DNA from: an uncultured Bacilli bacterium
GTDB taxonomy: Bacteria; Bacillota_I; Bacilli_A; RFN20; DUOF01
NCBI GenBank assembly: GCA_934183255.1
Contig: CAKPSD010000003.1
Location: 18,789 to 82,788 of the forward strand
Length of the DNA stretch: 64,000 bases
Direction of reading: 5' to 3'
Below, in pieces: positions 10,986 through 54,566 of the stretch. The position numbers and the translations under genes were made by a program. Each line of letters starts with the position of its first letter. Within the stretch, counting starts at the first letter, position 1. Below the pieces are notes generated by a model. It had not been told where the DNA came from and made no database searches. It saw only the letters and a program-made list of their open reading frames with translations.

Positions 10986-11471
10986 ATGATTTGTGCCAAA
11001 AATTTACAAGCAATAAATGAAATCATAGAGAAAAGAAAAAACATGGAAACTCCATTAATGATGATATTAAGTGATATTCAACATAAATATGGATACATTG
11101 ACTTAGAAGTACAACAAATAGTAGCAGATGCTTTAAATATACCTGTAAGTGAAGTATATGGAGTAGTAACATTCTACTCATACTTTTCATTACAACCAAA
11201 AGGCAAATATGTAATCGGCATATGCTTTGGTACTGCTTGCTATGTAAAAGGTAGTCAATCATTGTTAGATGCTTTCTCAAATAGGCTTGGAATAAAAGAG
11301 GGAGAAACCACTAAAGATGGTTTATTTACTATTGATATTTTAAGATGTATAGGAGCATGTGGACTAGCACCTGTTGTTAGTGTAAATGGCAAAATATATC
11401 CTCATGTTGCTATAAAAGATGTAGATAAAATAATTGAAGACTGCAAAAAGGAGGAAGCAAATAATGCCTAA
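10986..11471 (+). CDS. [FeFe]-hydrogenase NuoE-like [2Fe-2S] subunit (HydC/HndA type)
   Basis: Thioredoxin-like 2Fe-2S motif: CFGTAC ... CIGACGLAPVV. RBS GAGGTGA. It is translationally coupled to the next gene. Confidence 0.85.
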   Translation: MICAKNLQAINEIIEKRKNMETPLMMILSDIQHKYGYIDLEVQQIVADALNIPVSEVYGVVTFYSYFSLQPKGKYVIGICFGTACYVKGSQSLLDAFSNRLGIKEGETTKDGLFTIDILRCIGACGLAPVVSVNGKIYPHVAIKDVDKIIEDCKKEEANNA

Positions 11472-13341: not shown

Positions 13342-15067
13342 TGTAAAAATAAACAATCAAGAATATTCCTTTGAAGAAGGTTTAACAATACTTGAAGCCT
13401 GTAGAAAAGTTAACATTGATATCCCTACCCTTTGCTATTATAAAGGATTAGTAGAATCGGGAAATTGTCGTGTATGCTTAGTTGAAGTAAAAGGTGCTAG
13501 AAATTATGTAACTGCTTGTAACTATAAAATTTATGATGGGATGGAAGTGTTCACTAATACTTTAGAAATAATAGAAGCAAGAAAAAAATCAGTAGAGTTA
13601 ATAATATCTAACCATTCAATGGAATGCCTAAACTGTAGTGCTAATCATAATTGTGAATTACAATCATTAACAAAAAGATTAAATGTTGAAGAAAGATATT
13701 ATGGTAAAAAAACAGAAAGAACATTAGATGATTTTTCTGGCATTTTAATTAGAGATACTTCTAAATGTATATTATGTGGAAGATGTATTGAAATGTGTAA
13801 AAATACACAAGGAATAGGAATCCTTAACTTTGAAAATAGAGGCTTAAAAACAATTGTAGCTCCTATTGCTAACAAATCATTTAAAGATGTGCCTTGTACT
13901 TATTGTGGGCAATGTACTAAAGTGTGTCCAACTGGTGCACTTACTATAAAAGAAAATATTAGAGACTTACTAGTAGCACTTAAAGAAGGAAAACATGTAG
14001 TAGCACAAACTGCCCCTGCAGTAAGAGCTGCTTTAGGAGAAGAATTTGGTTATAAAATAGGTACTAATGTTGAAGGTAAAATGGTCGCAGCATTAAGAAA
14101 AATTGGTTGCTCAAAAGTATATGATGTTAACTTTGGAGCAGATTTAACAATAATGGAAGAAGCTAGTGAATTTATAGAAAGATTTACTAACAAAGAAAAC
14201 TTACCTCTTATAACTTCATGCTGTCCTGGTTGGATAAGATATATAGAAACATATTATCCAGAATTATTAAATCATTTATCAAGTTGTAAATCTCCTCACA
14301 TGATGGAAGGAGCAATCATTAAATCTTATTATGCTAAAAAGAATAATATAGATCCTAAAGATATAGTAGTAGTTTCAATCATGCCTTGTAGTGCTAAAAA
14401 AGAAGAAAAAGATCGCAATGATAATGATGTTGATATTGTCTTAACAACCGTAGAGTTAGCAAACTTAATTAAACTATTTGGAATCTCATTTGAAGATTTA
14501 GAAGATGAAAAATTTGATGCTGATTTATTAGGAGATTTTTCAGGAGCAGGAGTTATCTTTGGTGCAAGTGGTGGAGTCATGGAAGCTGCTTTAAGAACTG
14601 CTTATCATTCTCTTACAAATGAAGAATATGAAACTATTGAATTTAATAAAGTAAGAGGAATGGAAGGAATAAAAGAAGCAACATTAACTATAAATAAAAA
14701 GAAAGTAAATGTCGCAGTAGTTCACTCTTTATCTAATGCTGCTAAATTATTAAATGAAATTAAAAACGAGAAAAGCAAATATCATTTTATTGAAGTAATG
14801 GCTTGTCCTTTAGGATGTATAAATGGCGCAGGTCAACCAAAAATATCATCTAATAAACTAAATGTAAAAGAAAAAGATAATATCTTACTAAACACTTATA
14901 AAAGAGCTAATGCTTTATACAAGGAAGATGAAAAATTGCCTATTAGACAATCACATAACAATCCTCAAATAATTGAATTATACAAAAATTATTTAGATAA
15001 ACCTAATTCAAAATTAGCTCATAAACTATTACATACTACATATAGTAAAAAAAGTAAAAATATTTAA
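13334..15067 (+). CDS. hydA: [FeFe]-hydrogenase catalytic subunit (HydA, long form with N-terminal Fe-S domains and a C-terminal SSU-like domain)
   Basis: All three H-cluster motifs are present: TSCCPGW, MPCSAKKEE and EVMACPLGCINGAGQP. The N-terminus has a 2Fe-2S ferredoxin fold (CRVCLVEV) and CxxCxxCxxxC clusters. The C-terminus reads RQSHNNPQIIELYKNYLDKPNSKLAHKLLHTTY. Confidence 0.93.
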   Translation: MVNVKINNQEYSFEEGLTILEACRKVNIDIPTLCYYKGLVESGNCRVCLVEVKGARNYVTACNYKIYDGMEVFTNTLEIIEARKKSVELIISNHSMECLNCSANHNCELQSLTKRLNVEERYYGKKTERTLDDFSGILIRDTSKCILCGRCIEMCKNTQGIGILNFENRGLKTIVAPIANKSFKDVPCTYCGQCTKVCPTGALTIKENIRDLLVALKEGKHVVAQTAPAVRAALGEEFGYKIGTNVEGKMVAALRKIGCSKVYDVNFGADLTIMEEASEFIERFTNKENLPLITSCCPGWIRYIETYYPELLNHLSSCKSPHMMEGAIIKSYYAKKNNIDPKDIVVVSIMPCSAKKEEKDRNDNDVDIVLTTVELANLIKLFGISFEDLEDEKFDADLLGDFSGAGVIFGASGGVMEAALRTAYHSLTNEEYETIEFNKVRGMEGIKEATLTINKKKVNVAVVHSLSNAAKLLNEIKNEKSKYHFIEVMACPLGCINGAGQPKISSNKLNVKEKDNILLNTYKRANALYKEDEKLPIRQSHNNPQIIELYKNYLDKPNSKLAHKLLHTTYSKKSKNI

Positions 15068-16432: not shown

Positions 16433-17404
16433 TTAATTACTTTGAGACAAACTTAAGATAGCCATCTTATAAACTTCTTCTTCATTACATCCTCTACTCA
16501 AATCATTAACAGGCATTCTAACACCCTGTAAAATTGGTCCTAAGGCCTCATAATCACCTAAACGTTGCGCTATCTTATAACCTATATTCCCAGCATCTAA
16601 ATTAGGAAAAATAAAGACATTAGCTTTACCTGCTACTGGTGAACCTGGATCTTTCTTATCCCCTGTTGCTTTATCATATGCTGCATCAAATTGAAGTTCT
16701 CCATCATATGGAAAATCTACATTTTTATCTTTCATTAATTCTACTGCTTTTTGCATCTTTTCTACTTCAGGCCCTTTAGCACTACCTTTAGTTGAAAAAG
16801 ACAAGAAAGCAACATAAGGATTCATATCAAATACTCTAGCAGTTTCTACACTACTAACCGCAATATCAGTTAACTCTTCACTACTAGGATTAATATTAAC
16901 ACCACTGTCTGCAAAGATAAGAGTAGGATATCCCTCTTTTAGTAAAGCAAAGCAAGAAGAAACAATATTACAACCTGGTTTAGTCTTTAATATTTGTAAA
17001 GCTGGTCTAACTGTATCAGCAGTAGAATAAGTTGCTCCTCCAAGTGCTGCATCTGCTCTTCCAGTATAAAGCATCATAATTGCATAGTAATTTCTACCAC
17101 TTAACATTTTCTTACAATCTTCTAAAGTATTTTTGCCCTTTCTAAGTTCAAACATCTTATTAACATTATTATCAAATTCTTTATCTTTTAAATGATCTAA
17201 TATTTCTAGTTTAGTAATATCTAAATTATTTTCTTTTGCTAATTTAGATATTTTATCTACATCACCTAATAATAAAGGCTTACATAAATTTTCTTTTTCT
17301 AATCTAACAGCAGCCTTTAATATCCTAATATCATCACCTTCAGGCAAAACAATAACTTTATTTTTACCTCTAATTTTATCTCTCATTGAATCAAAAACAC
17401 TCAT
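16433..17404 (-). CDS. pta: Phosphate acetyltransferase
   Basis: 323 aa, short PTA_PTB type. Motifs: VIVLPEGDDIRILKAA, GGATYSTADTVRPALQILKT, FIFPNLDAGNIGYKIAQRLG, PVNDLSRGC. Confidence 0.9.
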   Translation of the reverse strand: MSVFDSMRDKIRGKNKVIVLPEGDDIRILKAAVRLEKENLCKPLLLGDVDKISKLAKENNLDITKLEILDHLKDKEFDNNVNKMFELRKGKNTLEDCKKMLSGRNYYAIMMLYTGRADAALGGATYSTADTVRPALQILKTKPGCNIVSSCFALLKEGYPTLIFADSGVNINPSSEELTDIAVSSVETARVFDMNPYVAFLSFSTKGSAKGPEVEKMQKAVELMKDKNVDFPYDGELQFDAAYDKATGDKKDPGSPVAGKANVFIFPNLDAGNIGYKIAQRLGDYEALGPILQGVRMPVNDLSRGCNEEEVYKMAILSLSQSN

Positions 17405-17489: not shown

Positions 17490-20400
17490 CTATATTGTTG
17501 GTATAGATGATACAGCCTCCCTAAATGCTTCACTCCAAGTAGAATGTTCACCTTTACTAATAGAAGTAACAGTACCACTAGTTAATTGACTAATAACTTC
17601 ATTTGCAATAGTTTGAGCTTGATTTTCACCTAAGAATGCACTTGCTTCAATTGCATCAAGTGTACTTCCTACAACTCCTACTGTAGTATTTCTCTTTTCT
17701 TCAGTCTTTATATCATCACTTGTATATCCCTTAACAGTAGCAATATTTTCATTAATAGTAATTAAATTATCGATTTCTGTAGCCCATACTATATTTTTAT
17801 AATTATTAGTTTCTTCTTTTGTTTTAACATGAACACCATAATCATTTAAACTAGTATTACTATTTATTCCTCCCATTGCACTATCAAGTGTGCTTACATA
17901 CTTACCTTCTAATATTTTACTTAACTTCATAGCATCTAACATTGTAGCTACTCCTACTTTAGTTTCACCTGTTAAAGAAGTAATATCAGTTAAATTATCT
18001 ATTACACTTCTATTTTTAGCATATGCTTTAAATACCGCTGTTTCATTAGAATATTGTAAATAACTATTATACATTAATGTTGCTACACTAACGCCACTAG
18101 AACTAACACCTTCCATATTAATAGTATCTACAGCCTTTATTAATAAATGTGCTCTAGTATTAGATAATAATGTACTATTATCAATACTATTAAACATATT
18201 TTCTAATCTAGTAACACCATTAGTGTCAACATCACTAAAGTTAGATGATGTCATATTTACCATAGATTTAATTATTCCAAGTTCATTAGTCCAATCACTA
18301 ACACTAGCTATACTATTCTTTAAATTAGTTGTGCTATCACTTGCATCTCTATCATCTTTTACACCATTACTTACTAGTAAATCAGTTACCTTATTAACAA
18401 CTATTTGCTTCAATATCTTAGATTTCATAACTTCATTTACTAATCCCCCAACCTTAACTACATCCATTGTCTCAATATCAAGGTTAACTAAATCAGTAAT
18501 TGTATTCTTCTCATCAGCTATATTAAGTAATACACTAGTCTCATTATCCCAGAACGCATCTATCTCTTCTTGATTAGATGTACTAGGCCATTCTATACTT
18601 TCATATTCTTCATTTGTCAATAAAGTACTATTCTTAACTGCATATTTCAAAATATCCACTTTTTTAGTTTTAAATAATTCCATTGCATCTACTGCATCAA
18701 ATACAGTTTCTAAATTAGCTTTAGTAATATTATCACTAACACTAAAATCAACACTTAATACTTCATTAATATTAGTAAATTCATTTTTCCATTTTTCTTT
18801 AGTATCTATAGCAAGTAATTCTTCCTTAGTAAATGATACATCATATTCACTAACAAAATTATTAACTGTATCTTTCATATAATCTACAAAAGGATCCTTT
18901 AACATACTAGACTTATAAACTTCTCCCATAATAATACTCAAAGCATCTACTTTAGTATCTTCTTTCAATAAATCAGTAGAAATATCTCCTAATGATTGAA
19001 GTTCTAATGTACCAGCTGCATCTGCAATTTTCTTTAATAATACTAATTCACTTTCCCATGTATTATAGAAAACTTCTTTAGTAGAATCTTCATTATCTTC
19101 ACCAAAGTTAATCACAGGCATACCATTAATATCTATCTCAAGTCCAATCTTAGGTAATACATAACTATAACTAAATGGTAAGATTGATAATAATGCTTTA
19201 GTGCCTGATAATTCATTTAATAATGCTGTTACATTATTATAATTAACTTTCTCACTATTTTTATATTCATCATATAAAGCATATCCTTTTTCTAATACAT
19301 CAAGCTCCTTAATCCATGCTTCTTTACTATCTACATATTTAAGAACTCTAGCATCAACTTTATAATTCTTTCCTTCTAATTTCTTATTAATTTGCGTACT
19401 TACTACATCTTTAAATAAATAAGAACTATTTAATTCATTTAATAATGTAGCCAAACTATCTTTACTATTATCTTTAATTGCTCCACTTACAAACAACTTA
19501 CTAGCAACATTACTTACAACATCACCATCAGTTATTTCTTTCAAATTAGTAATTTCCATAGTTTTAACAAACTTAATTGCATCTCCAAGTAAATTAGAAA
19601 CTTCATTATTTAAAGCTTCAGTCATTTCACTAGGAACAGTAGCTCCATATTTACCAATATAATTTTCTATTAATCCAGGCATTGCTTTGCTTACTATTCT
19701 AATATTTAACACTTTAGTTATTAATGTTTCTAATTTACCTTCATCTATATTGTTAATAACAGTCATATAGTTATCTTTATTATCCATAATTGTATCAAAC
19801 AAGCCACTAGTAACAGCATACTTAATCGCACCAATTGCACTACTAATATCGGTCTTTAACTCTTGTAAATTAGTATAGCCAATAGTATCAAGTATGTTTT
19901 CATCATTAAATAGTTTAACTAAAGATTCCTTAGATGCATCCATCGCATATTTAACACCAGCATCTAGTGCTTCAGATAATAATTTAGAACTCATTAAATA
20001 GTTAAGTCCTTTTTCTACTTTATCAAAATCCACTGTAGAATAATCTGCCTTTTCAGGATCAAAGTTTTTATCTGTTAATAACTTGATAAGTCCTGAATCA
20101 TTAATAATTGCAAAACTTACTAATAAAGTAGACATTTCTGTTTCAAGACTCATTTTTTCACCATTTATCTTAGCTGTTGTAAGCCTATCACTAACTAATT
20201 TATCTAAACTATGTTTACCACCAATCTTAGCAAAAATAGTATCACCATACATGTCTAAATATTTACAAATAACATCTGAATTTTCAATCCCTGTATTAGA
20301 GCAAATACTAACTTCTGTCTCTAACTCGCTCTCTTTTTTAGCTTTATTATACATTCTATTCACTAAATTAAGTGGTACTAAAATTAAACTAGTTAAAGTT

Positions 20401-20981
20401 AATCCCTGAACTATTCTAATAAGACCGCCTTGTAAACGATGCTTTCTTCTATAAACCTTAACTTTCTTTCCTTTATCATTTCTAAGAACATTACCATCTT
20501 CATCAAATTCATATTTATTTCTATGAAATACATTTTTAGAAATAATACTATAAATTATTAAATATATCCAATAAATAGGAAACAAAAAAGATAAAGGTAG
20601 CCCAACTATCATTAAAGCTAAAAATAATACTGGTGCTGCTATTAATTCAGGCATTGCTATTACCATATTTCTTAAATTATCAGAATAACTAAAAAACTTA
20701 GCAACTTCATCATTTTGTTCTATTTGATAAATAATAAAATTTCTAACACCTTGAATACCATTTATAGTAATATTCATATCTAATACTTTTTTAGTAATAG
20801 GTATTATTGTAAATAAAAGTATAGTCGTATACAAAAACGCCCATATAAATCTTCTAAGAACTTTATATCTACCCCTAATTACTCCAGCCACAAAAAAGTA
20901 AAGAGAAAGCACTAATATTAATGCCCATGGTCCCCACTTAAACAACATCTCAATAGTTTTTTCGCTCACCTGAAACACCAC
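17490..20981 (-). CDS. Large multi-pass membrane protein with an ~950-aa helical repeat domain, function unknown
   Basis: 1163-aa ORF. It has 4-5 N-terminal hydrophobic helices (WALILVLSLYFFVAGVI, FIWAFLYTTILLFTIIPI, IAAPVLFLALMIVGLPLSFLFPIYWIYLIIYSII, LTLTSLILVPLNLV). The long D/E/K/N/L-rich domain that follows has a recurring W-x-x-E-(L/I/F) motif. No catalytic motif was recognised. Confidence 0.8.
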   Translation of the reverse strand: MVFQVSEKTIEMLFKWGPWALILVLSLYFFVAGVIRGRYKVLRRFIWAFLYTTILLFTIIPITKKVLDMNITINGIQGVRNFIIYQIEQNDEVAKFFSYSDNLRNMVIAMPELIAAPVLFLALMIVGLPLSFLFPIYWIYLIIYSIISKNVFHRNKYEFDEDGNVLRNDKGKKVKVYRRKHRLQGGLIRIVQGLTLTSLILVPLNLVNRMYNKAKKESELETEVSICSNTGIENSDVICKYLDMYGDTIFAKIGGKHSLDKLVSDRLTTAKINGEKMSLETEMSTLLVSFAIINDSGLIKLLTDKNFDPEKADYSTVDFDKVEKGLNYLMSSKLLSEALDAGVKYAMDASKESLVKLFNDENILDTIGYTNLQELKTDISSAIGAIKYAVTSGLFDTIMDNKDNYMTVINNIDEGKLETLITKVLNIRIVSKAMPGLIENYIGKYGATVPSEMTEALNNEVSNLLGDAIKFVKTMEITNLKEITDGDVVSNVASKLFVSGAIKDNSKDSLATLLNELNSSYLFKDVVSTQINKKLEGKNYKVDARVLKYVDSKEAWIKELDVLEKGYALYDEYKNSEKVNYNNVTALLNELSGTKALLSILPFSYSYVLPKIGLEIDINGMPVINFGEDNEDSTKEVFYNTWESELVLLKKIADAAGTLELQSLGDISTDLLKEDTKVDALSIIMGEVYKSSMLKDPFVDYMKDTVNNFVSEYDVSFTKEELLAIDTKEKWKNEFTNINEVLSVDFSVSDNITKANLETVFDAVDAMELFKTKKVDILKYAVKNSTLLTNEEYESIEWPSTSNQEEIDAFWDNETSVLLNIADEKNTITDLVNLDIETMDVVKVGGLVNEVMKSKILKQIVVNKVTDLLVSNGVKDDRDASDSTTNLKNSIASVSDWTNELGIIKSMVNMTSSNFSDVDTNGVTRLENMFNSIDNSTLLSNTRAHLLIKAVDTINMEGVSSSGVSVATLMYNSYLQYSNETAVFKAYAKNRSVIDNLTDITSLTGETKVGVATMLDAMKLSKILEGKYVSTLDSAMGGINSNTSLNDYGVHVKTKEETNNYKNIVWATEIDNLITINENIATVKGYTSDDIKTEEKRNTTVGVVGSTLDAIEASAFLGENQAQTIANEVISQLTSGTVTSISKGEHSTWSEAFREAVSSIPTI

Positions 20982-24409: not shown

Positions 24410-27400
24410 CTAAGCTGCTCTTACTTTCTTTCTAAGTTTTAGAATTAAGAATCCACCACCTACTGCAGCAATTCCTCCTAATACATAGAAGATCCATGTG
24501 AAGTTACCTCCACCTTTATTCTTATTATTATCTGGATTTACTGGATTATCTGGATTTACTGGATTATCATTAAATCCATTATTCACTATTCCAATAAGAA
24601 TATAACTCTCATCATCAAAGTTAATTAAGTAGTCTGTTATACCATATAATTCCTTATTAATAACACTCTCAACATTAGAATCTACATTAATTTGGAATGA
24701 TATAGCATTTAATTTAAATGTTTTACCATTAACAGCACCACTAGATAAAATTGAGAAGATAGTATGTTCTTTATCAGGAATAACACCCATAAAGTAAATC
24801 GCATCATTATCACTAATAGAATCTATATCATCAAATTCAAGATATGCTCTACTACTACTCAATTTTTGTAATATTACTCTATCAAATTTAATAGGAGATC
24901 CAGAAGTAACAGTAGTATCAGCTACATTATCTCTATCAATAACATTAAATGTATATTTATCTTCATCTGTTTCTAATTCTTTAGTATCTGGAGCAAGTAT
25001 AACAAATTCATAAACATACCTATTACCAGCTACATCTGTAATAACAAATCTATAATGTCCAAATCCTTCAACAGGTACTCCAGTATCACTATAACATTGC
25101 ATATCTACAAATAGTTTGTTATTCATATAACCTTGTACTCTCATACTTCCACTATCATCAATAAATGATATAGTGAATGAATCAACATCTTTATAAATAT
25201 CATCAATAGGTTTATCAAGAATATTATTATCCTTTATGATATTAACCATTGGAGCCATCTTATCAAATATAAATGTAGCAGTAGTAACTTCTCCAGATAC
25301 ATTTCCTACAGTATCAACTAATCTAAAGTATAGTTTTACTCTAGTTAATGGATCATTTAAGTTAGCTGTATATGCTAAGTTATAAGTATCACCTTCACAT
25401 ACACTCCAATTAGATTCATCCCTGTTATTATTTATAACAACTAAACATTCATAATGATATCTATTGGTGTTATCACTACCACCAGTTATTTTATAATATA
25501 ACTCATCACTATTTGTATAAATACTATCACTAGTTATATCCAAAGTATTTCTTCCATCATAACTTAATTCAATCTTGCTACCAGCTTCATTAGGATTTGT
25601 ATTATCTATTATACTAAAGTATATTTCTAGATATTGTATATTTCCACTTGCATCTGTTACTTTCAAATTAGCTTTAAATCTAGCATATTCTTGATTGCTT
25701 ACAGAATCAGTAGCTGAAATAGAATCAATTATGTATGCTAAGTTTGTATCATAATTATCTCTAACAAAAATATTAGTACGTATCCAACCAGCATCATTAG
25801 ATAAATATTTCATCATCTTTTCATGTTCATTCGATCCTGAATATATTGACCAGTTAACCTCATTATAATTGAATGATTTTTCAATACTACTAGTAGTGAT
25901 ATCATCATTATTCATAGTAAATGTAGGAGAAGTAGTATCTTCAACAAAGATAACATATTCTATTTCACTACTATTCTTACTATCATCATAACAAATCATA
26001 ATGATCTTATAATAACCTGTTCTAGTAAGTTTAATCTTATAATTTTCTTTGTCTTCACTAGATAACTCTATTTCACTAAAGTTAACACCATCATTTGAAT
26101 ACATTAAACTCTTTATAGTTACTTCATGATATTTATCATCTTCATGATCTTTTGAAGTTGGTTTATTTAATTTCAAATCACAAATGTCTTCTTCATTAAA
26201 GCAAACTGTAGGTCTATTTTCGTTGTCTCTAATATTAAGAACAAAGTATATAAATGCTGTATCTCTACTTATAATATATTTAACACCATTAATTTCAAAC
26301 ATGTTATTAGCAGTAATACTTGCAACTTTATTTCCATTACTATCTACAATCTTTTTATCAGTTATATCACTAACATCAATAGTATATTTTACATCACCTA
26401 TAGTAAAGTATTTTCCTTCACTAATAGCTATGATATTATCATCTATTATATCAGGAGAATGCTTATCACCAATATTTAATGTGATACCTATATTAGCATC
26501 ATCAGCTAATGCTTTATTACCAGTTGAATCGATTACTTCATAAATAATTCTATATGAACCAGGCAACATAAATGTAAAGCTATTTCCTTCATTTACAATA
26601 TATAGTCTATCGTTATAGTAGTACTTATTATTTTCAAATGTTATTTCTTCATATTCATTATTTATCTTAAATTTAATAATTCTTCTAACACCAATACATT
26701 CACCATCAGCAGTATTACAAGTAACAATATTGCCTTCACTATCAAATCCATAATTATCACTAACTGTAATTCCTGCATCAGTATATGTGTAGCCATTAAC
26801 ATTAGTTATATCATAATAATAAGCTTTTCCATATGCATAAGTTCCATTTACTCTAAACTCTGGTTTTGCTTCATCAACTACTTTTATAGTTAATGTAACA
26901 GTATTTGATTTATTTCCAGCAACATCGCTATAAGAAACATCAAAATTATAATCACCAATCTTATTAAATATAAAGTCAGTTTCACTAAATACCCATTCAC
27001 TATCATTTGCAGATACTTTATGATTGTTGAATGAAATTAATAATCTAGATTTTTCATCTATTGTTAAGTTACTATAAAATTTTCCATCTACTTGATTAAT
27101 AAAGTATCCTGATATTATTTCTTTTATTTTAGAACTTGAAAGAGATATGTTATTAATACTCTTATTTACAACAACTAATAATGTACAATTTGAAGTATTC
27201 TTAGAATCACATTCAATTTTCTTACTACTATAATAACTATTTGTTTTAACTTTTATTTCAGGACTTATAAAATCAAGTTTGATTTCTGATTCATTTGAAA
27301 CACCAGCTGAGTTATATGATGTTATAACTAATGAGCTAAGTTTATAATCAGAAGCTTTTAAAGCATCAGCATATATAGAACTTACTAAGTTACTTAATAA

Positions 27401-30400
27401 TCTCTTACCACTAAAGCTAGAATCTAATCTATATGATTTAGAACTATTACCATATTTAAATGTAAATTCTATTCTACTTATATTTGTTTCTAACATTTCA
27501 ATATATAAGCCATCAAATTTAGATTTACTAAAGTAATCATTTTCACTATAAACAACTTCATCACAACTAGTAGAAGTACAATTCTCTAATATTCTAAATC
27601 CACTATTAACTTGATCTATTACAACTTTTATAGAAGACTCATTTCCTGCTTTATCTTTAATCACAACGTTGTATTCACCATCAACATTAATAGTCATACA
27701 ATAACCTGTTCTTCCACCAGAACAACTAGCTACAGTTCTTTTTTGATTATTAACATATACATTTTCAGTATCAAATCCACTAACATATCCTCCATTAGCA
27801 TCATCGTTAAACACAAATCTTACACTCTTAGAGAAGTAATATCTTCCTTCTTCATCAATCATATATTCATATGTTCCATCAATACCTAAAGCACTTATAG
27901 TAGGTCTTTCATTATCAATATAAATATTAGATATTGTAGATATGTTTTCATTTCCATACATATCTATACCTTTAACAATAAGTCTATATGTTCCACTAAT
28001 TAAAGTATCTGTACTATAAATTACCATTGTATATTCTTTTTGACCTGATTTATTAATATCTTCTCTAACAATACAATTTGCAGTACATTTAGCAACTTCA
28101 TCAAAGTTATTTAAAGTAATACCTGAAGTACCACCACTTATAAGTTGTAAAATATATTTTACAGATCTTAAATTTTTATTACCAGTTACTTTAAATTCAA
28201 TATTATCTCTACTTAATCCATATAGATTATTAGAAACACTTAATTCAATTTCTGGTCTATTAGTATCAAATTCACCTAAAGCAAATACTTCTTCGCCTAA
28301 TACGTTATTTCCTTCGGATACATAATCATCAGTAACTTTAATTCTTAAGTCAGCCTTAATTATACCATCTGTAAACAAACTCAAGTATGTGCTTCCTCTC
28401 ATAGAATAAGTAATAACATTTCCTATTCTATTTTGAGTAAATCTATCTGTAATATCTGTTACATTATCCCATTCATTAGTATCAGAATTCTTAGTTACTG
28501 TATATATTGTAGTTTTTGGAGTTCCTACTACACCATTCATAGTAACAGTGAATGAAACTATACCATTATTATCAACATAATTAGGAGTATATTTCATATT
28601 ACCAATAGTAATACTTCTTCCCTCTACATACATAATCTTATATGAAATCTTGTGTTTATCATTCATATTCATATTGCCAACTTTATCTTTGATTCTTGTA
28701 TAGAAGTTAAAGTAACTATCTTCATCTAGCATTTCATTAGTAATTTCTTTGCTACAATAAGAAGCTGTTTCCATACTATCATCACTGATTTCGCAATACA
28801 TAACTTCATTATTATTTTCATCTAAGTAATATACAACAATAATATTATCATCTTTAACCTTGTTAGTGTAACTTAAGTGAACTCTTCCAAGTTCATCTTT
28901 AACTAATATAAAGTCTATAAGATCTCTAGAATTATTAGGCGCTACATTATCTACACTTATAGCAGTATTTGTAGTTACCTTATTACCTAATTTATCTGTA
29001 TATTCAACAACTAAATCATAAGCACCATCAAGAGCAACATCTGAACATACTACATCATAATAACTATCGCTACTTATAGAAGTTATTGTATTTGAACATC
29101 TCTTATTATTACCATCTTTCAAATAATAATTTAATGATTTAAACATATCTCCATATTCACTAAACTTAAAGGCAATCTTTAAACTAGTTCCATATGTATC
29201 ACTACCATTAATACCTTCATCTAATTTTTTATCATTGTATTTAAACATAGAATCAATTTTAACTTTACTTGAAGATACATTTTCAACAGTAAATGTCAAA
29301 CTATCATCACTTACTTTTCCAGATCCATCTTTAGCATATATAGTAATAACTTTTATTGCTTTATCATTTAAAGTTCTTAATGCTATACTTTGTAAGTTTC
29401 TACTATCAATACCTGTTAAATCAATAACATCACATTCATCATCATAACAGACATATAAGTATTTTTGTAAATTATCTTCATCAACAATAGCATTTTCTCC
29501 TAAATTAATAATTAGTTTGCCATTATACATGTATTGAGCATTATTAATTATAACTTGTTTATTTACTAAATTATAATTGCCATCTAATATATTACCTTCT
29601 ATAGTAAATTTACTTACATCCATTACTGGCTTATATGCATCAATATTCTTAGCTAAAATACTCTTATATGAAGCAGTTCCCCATTTATCTTCAATTTTAA
29701 ATACATAATATCCATTTTTAGAAACATTAGAAATATATTCATTTGATCCCTCAGATACTGTAAGCTTACTAGCTGAGTCCCATGCTAATTTAGAATAATC
29801 AGAAGCATTAACAAATGTTTCACTATAAACATAGAATATCTCTCTTCTACCAAGAGTAGTCTTTATATTAGAAATAGCACTATTTAATTTAATATTTAAA
29901 GGTTGATTAGTACTATAACTTATTGTCTCATCAGTTGTAACTTCATAATCGAATAAAGATGTACTATAAGAGCCTGTTATATTAATAATAGCTTTAATAG
30001 TATTACCAGCTTTATCCATAGCAATTATATTAATATAGTTATGAATAAGATTAATACTACTTCCACTTCTAAATGATTTACATCCACCATTATTTACTTC
30101 AACATTTTCACTTGACCATACGCATAACTTGCTAAGACCTGAATTGCCTTTATCCTTTGAATTAATAACAATAGAAGATACATCTGATGGAATAACATCA
30201 CTTACAACTCCATTTTCACTAGAATAATATAATTGTCTAGGTTTATTAGTATAATAACCATTGCCTGTTAAAGAATATTCTTCTTTAACAACACATTCTA
30301 AGCTATTTTTAGAACTACACTCTAATTTATAATTTTCTAAATTCTTACCATTAAAGTTATTTAATGAAACTATGATACTTGGTTTCTCATTATCATATGT

Positions 30401-33400
30401 AATATCAATAAATTTATAATATCTAGTATTACCAAACTTATCTACTACTTTTACAAATGCTGCTTTATCACTAGTAATAAGTGATGGCTTTTCATTTAAT
30501 GTAAATGTACCATTTTCAACAAGATTCATAGTTACATTACTACATGCACTTTCAAAATCTTCAAAAGTATTACTAGCAATACAATATCCAACTTTTGTCT
30601 CACCATTATTTAAATCACTAACAGTATATGAGGCAGGTTCACTATTATAAGTGTTTTTACCATTATTTCTTTCCATTTTTGGAGCTTTATTATCAATCTT
30701 ATAATAGCTTTCTGATACTTCAGTTACTACATTACCAACATTATCATATGCTGTAACTTTAATTCTGTATTCTCCCTCAAGTTCTTCTTTTAAGTTATAT
30801 TCTTTATTGTTTGTATCAACTAACTTATATATTGTTTTTTCTTCATTAACACCTGATTGATCTTCACCATCTACAATAGTTACAAGATTCTTAATATCTG
30901 TCTCTTCATATTTTCTATACTCTTCACTAGCATTAGCAAAACTAATCAAAGAAGCAGTATTATCAAGTTGTACAAATATTTTGCTAAATATACCATTACC
31001 TGACTTAGTTACCATCTTTACATATAAAACATATGTTCCTGTATAAGAAGAATTATTAATGTTAACATTGAAGTTAGTAGAAGTTCCAACACCACCATTA
31101 AATAAAATGTCATTGCTAGAATAGATTTGATCGAAGTTATCTTCAGTAACATCAATTGTTCCTTTTTTAACAAATAAGTATTTTACATCACTAACTGTAT
31201 TTCCACCTTTATTACAGAAAGTATTATTACATACATAAGTTACATTAACATTATTATTTTTTTGCCATCCTTCATTTCTAAATATAACTTTAGCATCATA
31301 TCCACCAGTTTCTGTATTATCAATTCTAATAGTTACAGATTTAACACTTGCTTCGTTATTAGCAGCATCTCTAACCCATATCTCATAAGTTCCATATTCT
31401 GTTATTTCAATATTAAAGCCATTAATCTTACCTTCAGATAGATATTTAGTACCTTCTTTAACAATTGTTTTTCCAACCTTCACATACGCCATAACAATTC
31501 CACTTGAATCTTGATTATTAGCTATATTTACATCAATAGTAACACTCTTTTCATTTGTCCAATTTTCATTAGCAGTAACATTAATATTGCTTGTTGTAGC
31601 TAAGTTATCAAAATATAATTCTTTATTCTTAGTTAAACAATAAGAATTATCATTCTTCATACAAACTTTAACTTCTAGATTCTTAATACCATTTAAGTTA
31701 TTGTTAGTAATATTTATTAAACTACTATTATCTACAGTTGTATATGAATTGCTATTAAACTTATATGTAGCATTTACTACACTACTTAAGTCTTCTAAAT
31801 TAAACTCTACTTTTGCAGTATGTGTCTGTCTATAATCATCTAATTTATAGTCATCACCTGAAACAATATCAAATCCAACATATACCAATTCTACACTATT
31901 AGAACTTTCATTACTTGAGTAATCTCTAACAGTAATACTATATTTCATATTAGCATCTAATGTATAATTATCATTTTGATTTTTACTAATGCAAGTATTA
32001 GAACCTTCTAATGATACACAAATTTCCTTAATATCAGAACTAATCTTATTTACAACTAATTCTATATTTTCATTAAATGAATAATACTTTTTATCAGTTG
32101 CTTTAAGGGCTTTTCCATTGTCCTTTATAGTAATATTGAAATCTGGTGCAACATTATCTACTTCAACTACATAAGTCTTTTCTGTAGTATTACCAACTCT
32201 ATCAGAAATCACTACTTTAATTGTAGAATTTTCTTTAAATTCATAAGTAAGAATATCTTCATAATTATATATTACATCATTAATATAATATATAGTTGAA
32301 ACAATACTTTCCTTATCATTATTTTCAAATATATTTAATATAATTTCAGTAATCTTAGTAGGATTATTTTTATGATCATTATCTACCTTTACAGTTAGAT
32401 TAGTAATTTCAATGTAGTTATCAATAATCAACTTGCTATCAACTTCATTTATATTAACTAAATCAGAAACATTAAGAGCCAAATCAGTTAATGAAACATT
32501 AATAGTAGGATATAGTGCATTAGCTTTAGCTAATTTGTTAGCTCCTGCAGTTACACTAACACTCTTTCTATCATCACTAATAGTAATATCACTAAATACT
32601 AGCATATCACTAGTAAAGTTAGCTTTAGTTATAATATCTCCATTAGTTTTAACTACAATATTTATTTGTCCTTTACCATTATAGTAATTTCCATTAATAA
32701 CACAATTAGTTCCTTCTACACAAGTAATACTATCTATATAGTATCCTGAAATTGGTGTATTATCAACTTCAATAGTAGTATCTATAACAAGTTCAGCTGA
32801 TACATTATTAACATTATCACTAACAGGATTAATGTGTAATTTGTATCTTCCATCACCTGCAGGTAAAGTAATTACAGCAACATTATTTGTTAATTTAGCT
32901 TCACCTGTATAAGTAGTACAATCATTATTTTCATCACACCACTTATAGCTTATAATAGAATCCTTTATTCCACTTAAATCATCATTAAATGTAATCTTAA
33001 CAATCTTATCATTAACATTATTTCTAGTAATATATTCATTACCATTAGTAATTAAACCGCTATAATCAACGCTACTAATACTTGGAGCAGCATTATCATA
33101 AGTATACACTAGTGTATATTCTGTTATATTACTAGCATTATCTTTAACTTGATAATTAATATTAATAGTTTTATTATTATTTAACATATATTCTTCAATA
33201 ACAAAATTGTTACATTCAAATGAATCATCATTTCTAACACATGTTAATTCAGTAATTTCATTATCTCTGTTTACAGATACTATAACACTACTATAATCTA
33301 TACCACTTGAATACTCAGCACTTCCATCAGTAACATCAAATGATAAAGAAAGTGTTTTTCCTACATAAGTTACTGCATTTCTAGTGTAAACATTTGCTAT

Positions 33401-36400
33401 GAAATTATTAACATTAGGTTTTTCAACATCAAAGTATAATTTTTCATTTAATGTTATATTCTTAGTAATTTTACCATTAATTCCAACAATTCCATCATTA
33501 GAACCAACAACCAAACTAATTACAGAGCTCTTTGTAGCATTTACAGCAAAGTCCTTAATAGTATAAGTAATATAATCTTCAGTTGTTAATGTAAACGTTT
33601 GTGAATTAATAGTAACTTGAATATCACTATTACCACTTACATATGACTTATTACCATTCTTCAATTCACCATTAAATGTAACTGTTAGACTATTACAACT
33701 AGCGCCACTAGTAATAAATTCTTTACCATTTATAGACTTACATCCAATTAATTCAGTAGAAACTATATTTCTAACTAAATTATCATAACGAACATCAGTA
33801 AATAATTCATTATCAATATTTACTTTATTTCCTGCTAAATCTTCAATATCACCATTATACTTAACAGCTAAATCTAACATTATTCCTGTTTCATTTTCAG
33901 AAACACTACCTTTTAAGATTATTTGAATAGTATTATTTTCACCTTTGCTTACAACAATATTAACATTAATATCTCCACTAGAACTACAATCTCTCTCATC
34001 TAATGTATGACATACTAAACTAAAGCTATTTTTAATCTTATTAAATATATCATCATAAGCATATGAGTTAATACCATTTAATACATATACAACTTTACCT
34101 GCACTCAACTCTTTATCATTTATAATCTTAATATTTTGCTTAATAACCTCAATATTATAACCACCAGTAATAGCAACTACATTATAAGCATATGCATAAC
34201 TAATAGTATTTGTATTTCCTAACACATCTTGTACTTCACCTAATGAAATATTTTCTAATAATCCCTTATCTTCATTAGTAATAGTATAACTGTATTTATA
34301 TGTTGTACCATTAATATATTCAACTACTACATTAGCACTTTCACTAAAGTTAAATGATAACTTAGGAGCTGCTTTTAATGCCTTATTAAAGGTAATATAG
34401 AAGTCTAATACAGTACCTTCTTTTACATAAGTATTTGCTTTAACTTCATTTTCTCCATTTTTAATAACAAAATTAGTAATTTCTGGTCTAGAATTATCAA
34501 TTTCAAAATCATAAGTAAATTTAGATGTTGAAACATCAATTTCATTTTCTAATTCTATATCTTTAAAACCATTAACACTTGTTAATAATATTTTCTTTAA
34601 TTTGCCACTATCACTAGAATTAACATCATAACTATATACAACTACATTATCAACACTTTGTTTTTTATAACCATTGTTAAACACTATATTTGAATTAAAT
34701 ACAGCAGTTAATGTAGGAAGATTATCATTAACATTCTTACTAAATGTAATTTCAACTGTTATAGTATCAAACTCTTTTGCTTTATTAGTAACTTCATTAC
34801 TACTATATACATTTATATTAGTTATCTCTGCCTTTTCACTAGATACAACAACTTCTTTTTCTGCACTAGTATTAGTTATTCCAGAAATACTTTCAAATAT
34901 TCCAAGAACTTCTAATCTCACTTTTTCTGCCTCTTGAGAATTAACAACAACATTAATGTATGCCAATGCCCCACTTGCATCATATCCTTCAGAAATACTA
35001 GCATCAGCACTAACATTTCCTCCACCAATAGTTCTATAAGCCTTAATATTATTTTTATAGTTTTCTACTAATGTAACGCCATTAATAATATTAGAGTCAA
35101 CTAATTCAATTCTAAATGTAATATCTTTATTAATACCATATGTTTCTTTTGAAGTAATAATATTTAAATTACCAACCTTAATATTCGAACATTTAATACT
35201 ACTATCTTTATATTCAATATCTTTATTAACAAACTCTGTATATGTATTTTCGCCAAATTCAAATCCAGCAATAGCAAAATTATCATTGCTTTGTACTTTA
35301 TAAACATAAACATGTTTTCTAACTGCACTATTTGTAGAATCTATTTTAACAGTTAATTTTACTCTAGAACCATCTTCATTGAATTTATCAGTACTAATAA
35401 TTAATGAATTATCCACATTATAACTATAATCATTATTAAATCCTACAGTAACTTTAATAGTTGTTCCTTCTTTACAGTATCTTGCTTCTCCATAAATCTT
35501 ACATTCACTAGCATCTATTTCTATGCTATTTATTCTTAATACATTAACAGTTTTACTTATTTCAACAGTATTTGAAATACCTGATAAATCTTTTACAAAC
35601 TCTTTATAAATAGCTAAAGTGATAGCATCACTAGAACCTATATTTGCTTTCAAATAAATTGTTTGAGCACTAACATCCTTACAATCTCCATAAAAACCAT
35701 CTTCACTTAAAGAGCATGTTATATCTGCAGCTATACTAATCTTTGTAATATCCATATAACTAATTTGTTTAGTAGAACTAATTTTAAAGATCAATTCTTC
35801 AGTTTCATTAATAAGCGATTTAGAAGTAATACTAATAACTGGTGCTACAACATAATACTTAATTTGATCATTCTCATGAATTGGCTCTTCTACCGTTGCA
35901 TTCATATTAAGATCTAAACTATTACCAGCCTTGTCTACTACAATACCAGTAATTTTATTTATAACTAATTTTTCGATATCACTAATAGATTCACTAGCAA
36001 TATTAAATACAAATACTAATTTATTAGAGATAGAACTTGAAGATGTAGGAGAAACATTTCCCATATTAGTATTAATAATAATGTTATTATAACTACTTAT
36101 AACCTCATTAAATGTTAATTGTAGTGTAATAGTTTGAGAATTACTCAATTTGCTACAATAACTAATACCATTAACATCATTACATCCATTAGCGGTAGAT
36201 TCAATCATTTTTAACTCAGGTTTTTTAGTATCAATTTTAATACTATTATCTAATGATTCAATATAGCCATCACTAATTACACCACTATACATTCCTGTAT
36301 TAAATGATAGATATTCAATAACATAATCTAAGTTTTCACTAGCTGTATAACTATACTTATGAGTATTTGTTCCATTTCCACTTGCAAATCTTAATACAAC

Positions 36401-39400
36401 ACCTTCTATATTAGTTTTAATATAGTAATTACTAATATTTTCATCCTTTATAGAAATAGGATTATAGAAAGTAATTGCATATTCAATAACTTTGCAATAC
36501 TCATTATCACTAGTACAGCTAGAAGCTACAACCTTATCTTCCTTAACTCTTGTAATAACAAATTGATCACTAGTAAATGTTTTATCATTTGTATTATAAG
36601 CACCATCAATTAAGAATCCTTCTTTAATTTGAATATCAAATACATTACTCATATTATTATTTAAAGTTCCTTTAATAATTAACTTTGTTAAGAAAAGATT
36701 TTCAATTGAATTAAATATTGTAACATCATTTGAATAAGTTATATTTTCTAATCCTAAATCCAAAATATTTGATTTAGTTAAATCAAAACTAGATGCTTTT
36801 GTAGTTTCTATTGCAATAGTTAACTCATTTCCATCATAATTATAAGAGTATTCACTATTACTAGTAATGCTAACAGTAAATTCAGGTCTAGTAGCATCTA
36901 CTACAATGTCATAAGTAACATTTTCATTTGTATTGTGAGCTTCATCCTCAACAATACCACCAACAGTTAATGTTAATGTACCATTTACATTTCTAGTATT
37001 AACTTCAATATCAAATTCATTGTTATTAACATTTGATATACTTACTATCTCTCCACCACTAACACTAATTAAGTCTCTATAATTAGAAAGAATACTACCC
37101 TCTACAATGCTAACTTTAAATCTTACAATATTATTTATACCATAAGTTGGTTTTGCATCACTTATACTTATTTCAGGCCCTGCTACTCTATCAGTAACAA
37201 CATTAATTACGTCATAATCAAATGTAATCTCTTTAAGTGTTACATTTTCATATAACCCATTATAATCAAATCCACCAACTTCAAAGTTATCTCCATCTTT
37301 AACAGTATATACATACACATGATTTCTATTGCTTCCTAATGATGTATCTATATTTATATTAATAACTTCATATACTAATAATTCACTTTCATCGCCTAAT
37401 AAAACATAATAAGTAGTATTTGTCGTATCAGTAAACTTATTGTCTTTAAAGTTAGATACTTCCTCTTCTACTATTTGAGTCAAATCTTCATTATTATAAG
37501 AAGTAACAATATAAAGTTTATTATTTACTTCATCATATCTATATACATTTTCTCCTAATGAGAAATATGTTAAACCATTTAATTCAGCAGTTACATACTC
37601 TGCAATTTTTAACATATCCAATTTATTTGAAGCATCTCTACTTACATCATAGTTAAATACTATTTCTACTTTTATTTTTGTGCCTTTATTACAATAAGCA
37701 ATATTATTTATTTCATTACAAGTAGTAGACACTATAGTATTAACTACTCTTAAAACTTTTATCTCTTCAGATTCAGCTGCACTAGTATTTTGATTACTAG
37801 CAGCATCAGTTATAAATCCATCATTAAATACTACAGTAAACGCATCTGCACTTAAATTTGTTGCCTTAACTTTTACATATAAAACATTAGAGCTTATTGT
37901 TTTATCAAAAGTAGAAGTAAATGTTTGATTATCTATAGAATATCCAATAACATTTGCGCCCTTTGCATTAATTCTAGAAACATCAAAAGTAACATTTTCT
38001 TCAATATTTACAGTTAATACAAACTCTTCTCCTTCTTTAACCATAGTCTTATCTGAAGTAACACTACTAATTACAGGAACTATATTATCTACTTCTATAG
38101 TTGTAGTAGTCCACTCACTATCAGTACCCTTTTGGTTACCTGCTAAATCAGTAATAATGCCTAGTTTATACATTAATACACCATTTTGTTTTCCAATAGT
38201 AATTGTAAATTTAACCTTATAAACTTCCCCATCAAGATAAGGAGTTGCAGTTAATTCTTCTATATCATCATTGTTTCCATACTTATAAGATAAAGATACA
38301 TTAGCATCTACTCTCTCACTTAATGTAAAGATAATAGCTACTTTTTTACCTTCTTTTACTTGTCCTGTTGTGCTATATTCAACACCACTAATTGAAGGTA
38401 CAGTCTTATCAACTATATAATTAAATACACGTTCTGATGTTAATTCATACTCCTTATTATCATTTACAAATTTAACTTTAATTCCAATTAATGAAATCGA
38501 TTGACTTCCTTCATTTAATTTAGTTTTTCTAGTCAATATAATAATATTTTTCCCACTAACATTTTCAATTTGAGAAGTATATTCTTCTGCTAAATCACCT
38601 AAATTTATAGTTTCAAATGATTTAGTGCTAGATTCAAGTTTTAAAATAACCTGACCAGTTTTAGTATAATATACATATTCACCATTATCTAAAACAGTAA
38701 CTGCATCACCACTTGGAATAATACTATAGTCCTCACTTCTTACAACTATAGTTACATCAAACTTAGCACTTTCATTTCCTAATTCATCAGCAAATGAAGG
38801 AATATGTACTACATAACTTCCACTAACATTAGGAGTAATACTTCTAACAACTGTTAATACGCCATTAGAATATGAATAAGTTGTATCAGTAGTATTAGTT
38901 AATTCATAAGAATCTTTTAATAGTGTATCTGTAACATCGAATGTTAATGTAATAGATGTATTAGAAGTAACACCATATTCAGTTGAAACTCCAGGTTGTA
39001 ATTTAACTGAAGGAGCTATATTATCGCGTTCTACATTAATGTTAATATTAATTGTATCTCCAAAATAGTTATATACAACTAATGTATATGTACCAATAAG
39101 TTTATTCAAAGTAATTTCTTTAACTCCAACTTTATTAATATTTGTTACATAATTATTTTGATAACTATATTTTTGAACATCATGGTTAAATGTATATGTT
39201 AAATCTATACTAGATTCTTTAATATATAATTTACCACCTTTTTCAACTATTGTTTGATTAGTTTTTCTTGTATAAGTAAACACACTTGTATTAACAATTA
39301 ATACATGTTTATTTAAACTGCTATAATTTAATGATGCATTACCATATTCATTAATAGATACATCACCATTTATTACAAAATAGTATTCGGTATTTTCACT

Positions 39401-54486: not shown

Positions 54487-54566
54487 TTTATCTACACTCC
54501 TCGTTTGTATATTATCATAAATTAAAGAAATACTCAATTGTTTTTTTAATTCTAAGCTTATTTTTA

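Follow-up and report, generated by a model that had tools for sequence, protein, structure and literature searches.

A near-invariant nine-residue basic tail ends the putative C-terminal membrane-anchor module of giant surface proteins in uncultured faecal Bacilli

Two giant surface proteins, termed A and B here, are encoded in the window (i.e., the whole 64,000-nucleotide stretch of DNA from an uncultured Bacilli bacterium that was analyzed), and both end in a transmembrane (TM) helix followed by a nine-residue basic tail. We consider it fairly probable that the last ~30 residues of A and B are a permanent type I membrane-anchor module and not a cleaved sorting signal. What we observed are the topology elements of these proteins, the conservation and the distribution of the tail, and the absence of known sorting models. 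According to our explanation, Sec would export the giant Ig-repeat ectodomain, the C-terminal helix would then partition into the membrane, and the nine-residue tail would stay in the cytoplasm, where its basic cluster would stop transfer. The tail may form a short amphipathic extension of the TM helix, with one face that may contact the inner leaflet or a putative conserved cytoplasmic or membrane partner. This anchor module would have been passed by descent within one giant adhesin-like family.

The A-type gene (24410–52738, minus strand; 9,442 aa) and the B-type gene (54567–62687, minus strand; 2,706 aa) were delimited from the ORF list and their N-termini. Each starts with a predicted Sec signal peptide, at ~52634–52738 in A (cleavage after VNA, judged by eye) and at ~62577–62687 in B (cleavage after VEA, also by eye). 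Judging from the translations, A ends in ...GGGNFTWIFYVLGGIAAVGGGFLILKLRKKVRAA and B in ...GALGTVLIITGALATLFLGYQIIRLRRRVRAA, each followed directly by the stop codon. The C-terminal TM helix of A, FTWIFYVLGGIAAVGGGFLIL, is encoded at 24440–24502 and that of B, ALGTVLIITGALATLFLGYQII, at 54597–54662 (hydropathy scan and orthologue sequences), while the predicted cytoplasmic tails, K-L-R-K-K-V-R-A-A-COOH in A and R-L-R-R-R-V-R-A-A-COOH in B, are encoded at 24413–24439 and 54570–54596, respectively, all on the minus strand. The shared ending of helix and tail reported in a preliminary description of this DNA was thus confirmed for both genes at the coordinates given there, where the plus strand yields no meaningful translation. 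The hydropathy scan gave just two hydrophobic segments per protein, the N-terminal signal peptide and the C-terminal helix, and the same combination was found in the orthologues of A and B. With a Sec signal peptide, one C-terminal TM helix and a net positive flank, A and B have a type I layout, which fits the topogenic stop-transfer signal that the preliminary description had offered as its second choice. The A-type helix is glycine-rich, and its FTW start is kept within the A subfamily. A terminator-like hairpin (24372–24399, minus strand; hairpin scan) lies immediately 3' of the A-type stop codon, and similar hairpins with T-runs were also found 3' of the A-type genes in L004, L008, and L010. 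The A-type protein has no Pfam domain at threshold, and the only Pfam matches of the B-type protein are weak ones to Ig-like domains. The C-terminal ~600 aa of A and B are 25% identical (E 1e-27), by which we judge the two to be old paralogues; the paralogy extends over this whole region, so the shared ending is not an isolated module grafted onto unrelated proteins.

The tail is near-invariant across the family. In 32 family representatives, which were collected from fragmentary metagenome assemblies independently of the tail, the nine C-terminal positions read [KR][LFM][RK][KRN][KR][VI][RK]A[AVI]-COOH, with 4–5 Lys/Arg per tail and, in the C-anchored conservation table, a fixed length with zero indels. 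Ala is at position -2 in 31 of the 32 sequences and Arg or Lys at -3; 27 end in Ala-Ala and the remaining five in Val or Ile. Entropy is 0.2–1.3 bits at positions -9 to -1 versus 2–3 bits upstream, and over the last 450 residues of 27 diverse members the tail was the lowest-entropy 9-column window among 363 (0.75 bits versus a mean of 2.12). Mean pairwise identity is 0.67 in the tail, compared with 0.30 in the ectodomain and 0.29 in the TM helix. The helices have nevertheless not diverged almost completely, as had been claimed, since G(-22), G(-14), an aromatic residue at -13, and I(-11) are kept family-wide.

Judging from these alignments, the family-wide conservation of the tail is far beyond chance. 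Because the tail is near-invariant in both orthologues and paralogues, although their ectodomains and TM helices share only ~30% identity, it is under real selection, in agreement with the preliminary description, and the free variation among orthologues that would have spoken against its idea was not found. Synonymous codons differ at the tail Val, Ala, and Arg among copies. The protein itself is thus what is selected, and the same variation rules out an overlapping element maintained at the RNA or DNA level. It could be argued that no selection is involved and that the tails are identical by chance or because the two genes were recently duplicated or underwent gene conversion; A and B are indeed paralogues, and from the two window sequences alone, 6 of 9 tail residues are identical against a 25% background (binomial P ~0.01). 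This is extremely unlikely, because the paralogues are just 25% identical elsewhere and ~40 sequences from many species retain the tail at an average identity of 30% in the ectodomain and TM helix, while codons that differ between copies argue against gene conversion. The codon variation, the conservation table and the entropy-window result together refuted this explanation.

Since only nine residues follow the helix, the basic cluster would be essentially the only barrier that keeps the C-terminus from slipping through the translocon, and this role would account for the free interchange of Lys and Arg and for their almost never being lost. However, a plain positive-inside stop-transfer signal needs no invariant V-R-A-A, no exact length of nine residues and no Ala at -2. 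Distant homologues of the ectodomain repeats end either in LPXTG signals or in generic TM anchors with basic tails, and the tails of these generic anchors are free in both length and sequence; by comparison with them, something more specific than stop-transfer appears to select the invariant tail. Hydrophobic tail residues are placed at -8, -4, and -1 (4,3 spacing), which, together with the fixed length and Ala at -2, suggests an amphipathic continuation of the TM helix, and contact with the tail from the cytoplasmic side is probable. Listeria ActA and the P1-type adhesins of Mycoplasma are likewise type I proteins with a C-terminal helix anchor and a short cytoplasmic tail, and the mycoplasma adhesin tail ties the adhesin to internal structures. 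We think, by analogy, that the A/B module may work like this tail, although the tails of ActA and the mollicute adhesins are longer and are not polybasic nonapeptides, and no sequence relationship is to be expected. A. kunkeei Giant1-5 were rejected as comparators because their C-termini are SH3b-like and a TM helix is missing (PMC12863079).

The tail motif is restricted to one protein family, with two or three paralogues per genome, in metagenome-assembled genomes (MAGs) of uncultured faecal Bacilli. A HMMER scan of 1.84 billion representatives gave ~30 proteins with the C-terminal module, and the tail pattern was present in all of them but the most distant, P0104. A profile without the TM helix and tail, used as a tail-independent probe, recovered P0003, which ends in FRKKIRAA, and the tail was also present at all ten loci that were located via the neighboring s366 gene (see below). 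Among 185,579 species genomes (GTDB), a DNA scan for [LF]R[KR][KR]VRAA-stop, which covered only AGR codons for Arg and only Val at -4, found the A and B paralogue types in low-GC Bacilli MAGs, with one or two exact matches per MAG, all A- or B-type; six further matches of the same motif, in high-GC DNA and lacking a TM helix, were due to chance. No other tail-bearing ORF was found in ~200 kb of sequence from the lineage. A word-indexed protein search with the C-terminal 150 aa yielded no more than two fragments, which reflects how few sequences of this lineage the database contains, and in metagenomes a loosened DNA pattern of the tail gave nothing but chance matches, one of which, L014, is a real PEP-CTERM protein that ends in FRKKVRAA by coincidence. 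Judging from these searches, the family does not extend beyond one lineage of uncultured faecal Bacilli with low GC content, and a family described as ending in ...[VI]RAA-COOH is not known to us. The preliminary description had reasoned that recent paralogy would suffice if no other proteins carried the tail; the tail is indeed not carried outside the A/B family, but the paralogy is ancient and not recent.

The preliminary description had favored a sorting signal of the sortase, exosortase, archaeosortase, or rhombosortase type, by which an as yet undiscovered enzyme of such a kind would remove the helix and tail and attach the protein to the envelope. A TM helix followed by a basic C-terminal cluster is actually the layout common to all such signals. 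The LPXTG signal (TIGR01167/PF00746) in particular ends large secreted surface proteins of Firmicutes that have Ig repeats; its motif is followed by a hydrophobic helix, often glycine-rich as in A, and a short basic tail, by which the precursor is retained in the membrane. True LPXTG signals are also present on distant homologues of the same repeats (P0062, P0066, P0074, P0115, P0118, and P0149), indicating a family history of C-terminal sorting, and the A/B module may be an LPXTG derivative whose cleavage motif was lost. We nevertheless regard a cleaved signal as quite unlikely, since the architecture is reversed. In the known systems the basic tail is variable, while in the A/B family the cytoplasmic tail, fixed in length and sequence, is the conserved element and the extracytoplasmic side, where the cut would be made, has no conserved motif: entropy is 2.2–3.1 bits at -40 to -29, and the conservation table gave no signature motif in this outer juxtamembrane region across the 32 family members. 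As the preliminary description had noted, no LPXTG-type or related pentapeptide precedes either helix (the upstream sequences are ...NPDNNKNKGGGN and ...KEDKKSEKNG), and none was found in the 32 members.

Searches with curated models point the same way. The 200-aa and 40-aa C-termini of A and B, as well as four other family members, were scanned against NCBIfam at E<=10, and Firmicu-CTERM (TIGR04145), which the preliminary description had named as a candidate, gave no match, provided that the release contains this model, nor did PEP-CTERM, GlyGly-CTERM, PGF-CTERM, MYXO-CTERM, or similar NCBIfam and Pfam models. The sole match of exosortase-class type was PFE-CTERM, at 10–14 bits against a cut-off of 24. 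A scored 12.9 bits on LPXTG_anchor (TIGR01167) as a 200-aa query and 16.6 bits as a 40-aa query (cut-off 15.9), i.e., below or barely at the cut-off, and the alignment covers only model positions 9–33 of 34, which are the helix and basic tail; its score on the Pfam model PF00746 was 13.4 against a cut-off of 20, and B did not match LPXTG_anchor at all. In the same kind of search the positive controls were above cut-off, namely the LPETG protein P0062 with 33 bits over positions 2–34 and the PEP-CTERM protein L014 with 21.2 bits against a cut-off of 16.

Firmicu-CTERM is, like the A/B ending, an uncharacterized C-terminal domain with a TM helix and basic tail in some Firmicutes, and its system consists of a CTERM protein encoded beside the XrtG exosortase and two glycosyltransferases (PMC12854382), whereas neither exosortase G nor such glycosyltransferases were found in the window (Pfam scan of ORFs >=150 aa). 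The PEP-CTERM/exosortase, PGF-CTERM/archaeosortase, GlyGly-CTERM/rhombosortase, and MYXO-CTERM systems resemble the A/B ending in the idea of a tripartite C-terminus (motif, helix and basic cluster). In these systems a signature motif lies on the extracytoplasmic side, each genome has many unrelated proteins with the signal, and a dedicated polytopic enzyme co-occurs; none of these features was seen for A and B. The tail is carried by only two or three paralogues per genome and not by assorted cargo; in addition, no exosortase, sortase, or rhomboid was found among the window ORFs in the Pfam scan (ORFs >=150 aa), and no candidate sorting enzyme in the window or in the flanks of related loci. 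The neighboring genes of the window encode TsaD, topoisomerase, M29 peptidase, Pta, hydrogenase, ribosomal proteins, and RpoB.

A permanent anchor would leave a free C-terminus in the cytoplasm, and the basic run and terminal Ala-Ala of the tail remind us of ClpX degrons, of which ssrA (...ALAA), cleaved RseA (...GVAA), and MuA (RRKKAI) are listed, and B. subtilis ClpX also recognizes C-terminal poly-Ala tails (PMC8138137). The tail could accordingly act as an inherent degron at the C-terminus, read by ClpXP or another AAA+ protease of the cytoplasm, but we consider this very unlikely. The resemblance is compositional only. An ssrA-like degron ends in a hydrophobic residue and Ala-Ala, whereas the 27 family members (of 32) that end in Ala-Ala have Arg or Lys at the antepenultimate position, the other five end in Val or Ile, and so do, with Val, 3 of the 10 s366-linked loci (L005, L025, and L028). 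A constitutive degron on a protein of 9,442 residues also seems wasteful, and nine residues are short for engagement by a membrane-proximal unfoldase. Such a degron would allow the membrane stub to be cleared once the ectodomain has been shed, or mis-inserted copies to be removed.

If the tail of a permanent anchor is contacted from inside, a partner may be sought among the neighboring genes. An orphan protein, s366 (53437–54537, minus strand; an alternative call gives 349 aa from ATG at 54486), is encoded immediately downstream of the B-type gene, and the small helical orphan s158 (52947–53423, minus strand) always directly follows it. Both are predicted to be cytoplasmic, with neither a signal peptide nor a TM segment. 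This order was found at all ten loci, including those where s366 is 44–53% identical to that of the window and the upstream (L025) or downstream (L028) neighbors are unlike those of the window. Homologues of s366 form 37 clusters and are absent from a JGI metagenome scan, and s366 had no sequence match in Pfam, NCBIfam, PHROGs, or PDB. Its AF2 model is confident (pLDDT 86, pTM 0.85) and yet has no fold match in PDB or the viral structure library BFVD at E<=0.001 (TM-scores ~0.1–0.2), while the single-sequence AF2 model of s158 (pLDDT 45) was too poor to use. Between the same genomes, s366 is far better conserved (80–96%) than B (38–65%).

Judging from this arrangement, the tail might bind s366 and s158 as a lineage-specific cytoplasmic module that couples the giant proteins to the cell interior, which would extend the anchor explanation without contradicting it. 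This is rather unlikely in our estimate; such a coupling might serve, for example, insertion or late secretion, positioning, or signaling. The ten loci are independent, no terminator-like site was found by the scan between the B stop codon and s366, and the heptad-like hydrophobic stripe with basic flanks in the tail would suit a short docking helix. On the other hand, adjacency is the sole link, and the A-type gene, with the same tail, is not next to s366 in L004, L005, L011, and L033. The housekeeping neighbors tsaD, topoisomerase, and M29 peptidase are also syntenic in most loci, so part of the adjacency of s366 may be plain conserved gene order, and a conserved AATTGAGTATTT element 3' of the B stop codon might provide s366 with a promoter of its own. 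We take s366 and s158 as candidate partners of the tail.

Uncultured Bacilli with reduced genomes are common in human and animal guts, and we are aware of no knowledge on the way in which their surface proteins are displayed. In the A/B family, a single protein takes up as much as 28 kb of a small genome, and the most conserved part of its anchor would face the cytoplasm. If the tail serves stop-transfer only, the outcome is a tidy annotation, a definable C-terminal anchor domain that can be converted to an HMM and would end the "hypothetical" labels on these giant proteins. If a partner reads the tail, it would offer a small, mutable handle of nine residues on the link between a giant adhesin and the cell interior, with the two conserved orphan proteins s366 and s158 as the first candidates. 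That the tail, in the form ...[KR][LFM]R[KR][KR][VI]RA[AV]-COOH, is the cytoplasmic handle of a previously undescribed three-part system, composed of giant type I adhesins, s366, and s158, in reduced-genome gut Bacilli is a tentative and, in our judgment, rather improbable proposal. If it were true, binding of the tail by s366 and s158 would serve the insertion, positioning, or regulation of the adhesins from the cytoplasmic side, and the system would functionally take the place of anchoring by sortase in bacteria of a lineage whose wall may have been reduced or lost.

The A-type giant surface protein (9,442 aa; 24410..52738, minus strand) ends in ...NKNKGGGNFTWIFYVLGGIAAVGGGFLILKLRKKVRAA-stop and the B-type protein (2,706 aa; 54567..62687, minus strand) in ...KNGALGTVLIITGALATLFLGYQIIRLRRRVRAA-stop, the last nine residues, here called the tail, being KLRKKVRAA and RLRRRVRAA, respectively. 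Translation confirmed the common ending of the two large proteins reported in a preliminary description; both genes lie on the minus strand, and plus-strand translation of its coordinates is meaningless. Typical Sec signal peptides are found at both N-termini (MNKSSNSKLIKILKYLVMVFAFFMCFFGISERVNA/ in A and MVQQKNKMNFNDIFKYVLFLFMLICTGFVCNSIKVEA/ in B, with cleavage sites judged by eye), and besides these the C-terminal segment was the sole hydrophobic one in either protein in a hydropathy scan; both are predicted to have type I topology, in which one helix joins a huge external ectodomain to the nine residues on the inside. BLASTP aligns A and B as paralogs across their C-terminal ~600 residues (25% identity, E 1e-27), so the ending that they share is not a module grafted in isolation. 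In the final 30 residues, the helices are identical at 4 of 21 positions, which is the background level, and the tails at 6 of 9, the other three being K/R exchanges. For two sequences only, this tail identity is modestly unusual (binomial P ~0.01, our own arithmetic), and relatives were therefore needed.

In 32 family sequences, gathered by searches that did not require the tail, anchored at the C-terminus, and numbered backward from the last residue (-1), no length variation was found in the tail, which was composed of K22 R8 (-9), L20 F10 M2 (-8), R28 K4 (-7), K16 R14 N2 (-6), R20 K12 (-5), V28 I4 (-4), R30 K2 (-3), A31 V1 (-2), and A27 V4 I1 (-1). Entropy was 0.2–1.3 bits at these positions versus 2–3 bits in the helix and outer juxtamembrane region. 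The helix has features of its own: G(-22) and G(-14) recur, as do an aromatic residue at -13 and I(-11). When the last 450 residues of 27 members were aligned with MAFFT, the tail was the lowest-entropy of 363 9-column windows (0.75 vs. a mean of 2.12), and mean pairwise identity was 0.67 in the tail, compared with 0.29 for the helix and 0.30 for the ectodomain. The tail codons vary across species and paralogs (GTA/GTT/GTG, GCA/GCT/GCG/GCC, and AGA/AGG), so that the constraint is on the peptide; neither gene conversion nor an element overlapping at the nucleic-acid level would account for the constancy. The earlier proposal that selection acts on the tail itself is upheld.

A profile built from the 450 membrane-proximal residues, without helix and tail, recovered P0003, a homolog ending in FRKKIRAA, as well as distant relatives with ordinary TM-plus-basic endings. 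The orphan gene s366, downstream of B (53437..54537, minus strand; called as 349 aa elsewhere), has homologs in 37 clusters, and every homolog with upstream sequence available is preceded by a giant gene whose product ends in the tail (the window, L003, L005, L011, L025, L026, L028, L029, L031/32, and L033/34), even at loci where s366 is just 44–53% identical (FRKRVRAA, MRRRVRAV, IRRKVRAV, LRRKVRAA, LKRRVRAA, and LRKRVRAA). A five-sequence C-terminal profile, run with HMMER against all 1.84 billion cluster representatives, yielded 3,908 matches, most via Ig-like repeats; the C-terminal module occurred in ~30 representatives, with A-like (FLIMKLRKRVRAA), B-like (YQIIKFRKRVRAA), and third-group (LIIKLRRRVRAV) endings. 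The pattern was lost in P0104, the most distant module-bearing protein. Two giant proteins matched via internal repeats only, P0121 (5,063 aa) and P0138 (3,957 aa), have a TM helix followed by ...KGHRIKAA and ...RGRRIKAA, and a looser [RK][IV][RK]AA ending may exist beyond the core family.

The pattern [LF]R[KR][KR]VRAA-stop was found at 12 places in the DNA of 185,579 species genomes, a scan which measures distribution, not conservation, because the tail was required by the search. Four low-GC faecal MAGs labelled "uncultured Bacilli" accounted for six of the 12; these were all A or B orthologs, with no genome having more than one of either, and the remaining six were high-GC chance matches without a helix. 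Three high-GC Acidobacteria/Vicinamibacteria MAGs (L002:5638-5664, L006:2871-2897, and L007:5212-5238) have in common ...Q[KN]R[SR]FRKKVRAA-stop in reading frames without a TM helix, suggesting a conserved sequence of another kind, unrelated to the giant-protein tail.

The preliminary description also raised a non-LPXTG sorting signal, perhaps Firmicu-CTERM. In NCBIfam scans (E<=10), Firmicu-CTERM, PEP-CTERM, GlyGly-CTERM, PGF-CTERM, and MYXO-CTERM did not match the C-termini, and the PFE-CTERM match was far below the cut-off. LPXTG_anchor aligned to A (12.9–16.6 bits) through the helix-plus-tail half of the model only and did not match B, while the LPETG ending of the distant homolog P0062 scored 33 bits in the same search and the metagenomic PEP-CTERM protein L014 scored 21.2 bits on PEP_CTERM. 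The latter (L014:1677-1703, minus strand; 51% GC contig; ...PIPEPCTMLLLGSGLVGLAAFRKKVRAA) is a genuine PEP-CTERM protein (TIGR02595), and its FRKKVRAA ending, the same eight residues, is a coincidence from a different sorting system. Firmicu-CTERM proteins have been described in a gene cluster that also encodes the exosortase XrtG and glycosyltransferases (PMC12854382); no such cluster was found near the A or B genes, nor any sortase, exosortase, or rhomboid among the window genes. All known cleaved C-terminal signals are defined by a motif on the extracytoplasmic side of the helix and have a variable basic tail, whereas in the A/B module the layout is reversed, the outer side being variable and the tail fixed. 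The tail is also confined to two to three paralogs per genome and not found on assorted cargo. The sortase-like interpretation, Firmicu-CTERM included, finds no support in these results.

Most likely, helix and tail permanently anchor the giant adhesin-like proteins in the membrane, as a module passed on by descent within this one family. As the helix is followed by just nine residues, helix and tail would probably still be inside the ribosome tunnel at termination, and the basic cluster would be the sole barrier keeping the C-terminus from passing through the translocon after the ectodomain, as expected from the established positive-inside and stop-transfer principles. Such a stop-transfer barrier accounts for the free exchange of K and R without charge loss; it leaves the invariant V-R-A-A, the fixed length, and Ala at -2 unexplained. 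The hydrophobic positions -8, -4, and -1 have 4,3 spacing, and in our reading of the sequence they may share one helical face with I(-11) and G(-22), flanked by basic residues, a pattern that would fit a helix extended by a short amphipathic stretch that packs on the inner leaflet or a partner. Because LPXTG signals occur on distant homologs of the same repeats, the module may be a sortase-signal derivative that lost the cleavage motif. Both walled and peptidoglycan-deficient species have been reported in novel gut Bacilli orders (PMC10868615).

The window (27% G+C) reads cleanly with genetic code 11, and its remaining genes belong to the ordinary chromosomal repertoire (rpoB, L1/L10, nusG, an FeFe-hydrogenase cluster, pta, topoisomerase, and tsaD), with an ordinary ribosomal protein L10 leader upstream of the L10 gene (6259..6374, minus strand; RF00557, 72 bits). 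The three-gene electron-bifurcating-type hydrogenase cluster (10986..15067, plus strand), encoding a 2Fe-2S thioredoxin-like subunit, a Nuo51-like subunit, and the Fe-only hydrogenase large subunit, together with pta (16433..17404), points to a fermentative organism producing hydrogen and acetate. A 1,163-aa protein (17490..20981, minus strand) combines four TM segments at the N-terminus with a ~960-aa domain without Pfam or NCBIfam match; in L025 and L033/L034, its homologs (1,314–1,388 aa) adjoin pta and are a few genes away from the B-s366-s158 cluster.

In 10 of 10 loci, the two orphan genes s366 and s158 (52947..53423, minus strand) follow the B-type gene. B and s366 are not separated by a terminator-like site. 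Neither product has a signal peptide or TM segment. s366, which is much more conserved than B, had no match in Pfam, NCBIfam, PHROGs, or PDB sequences, and its confident AF2 model (pLDDT 86, pTM 0.85) had no fold match in PDB or BFVD. The AATTGAGTATTT element (54520..54566, minus strand), ~25 nt after the B-type stop, is conserved at the same position in L003, L005, and L011, hence in four species; it was not flagged by a simple promoter scan and may serve s366 as a promoter or regulatory site. Only in the window is the junction between s158 and the topoisomerase gene interrupted by the A-type gene; in related genomes (L004, L005/L008, L010/L011, and L033) this junction is intact, with the A-type gene upstream of tsaD in L004 and at another site on the contig in L005/L008 and L010/L011, so the giant gene has relocated.

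In our view, the module is a membrane anchor at the C-terminus whose cytoplasmic nonapeptide is under unusual constraint, and it is specific to a single uncharacterised lineage. Adjacency to the B-type gene makes s366 and s158 the obvious candidate tail-binding partners, yet the A-type gene has the same tail and changes location, and we consider it rather unlikely that the tail is the handle of an s366/s158 module.
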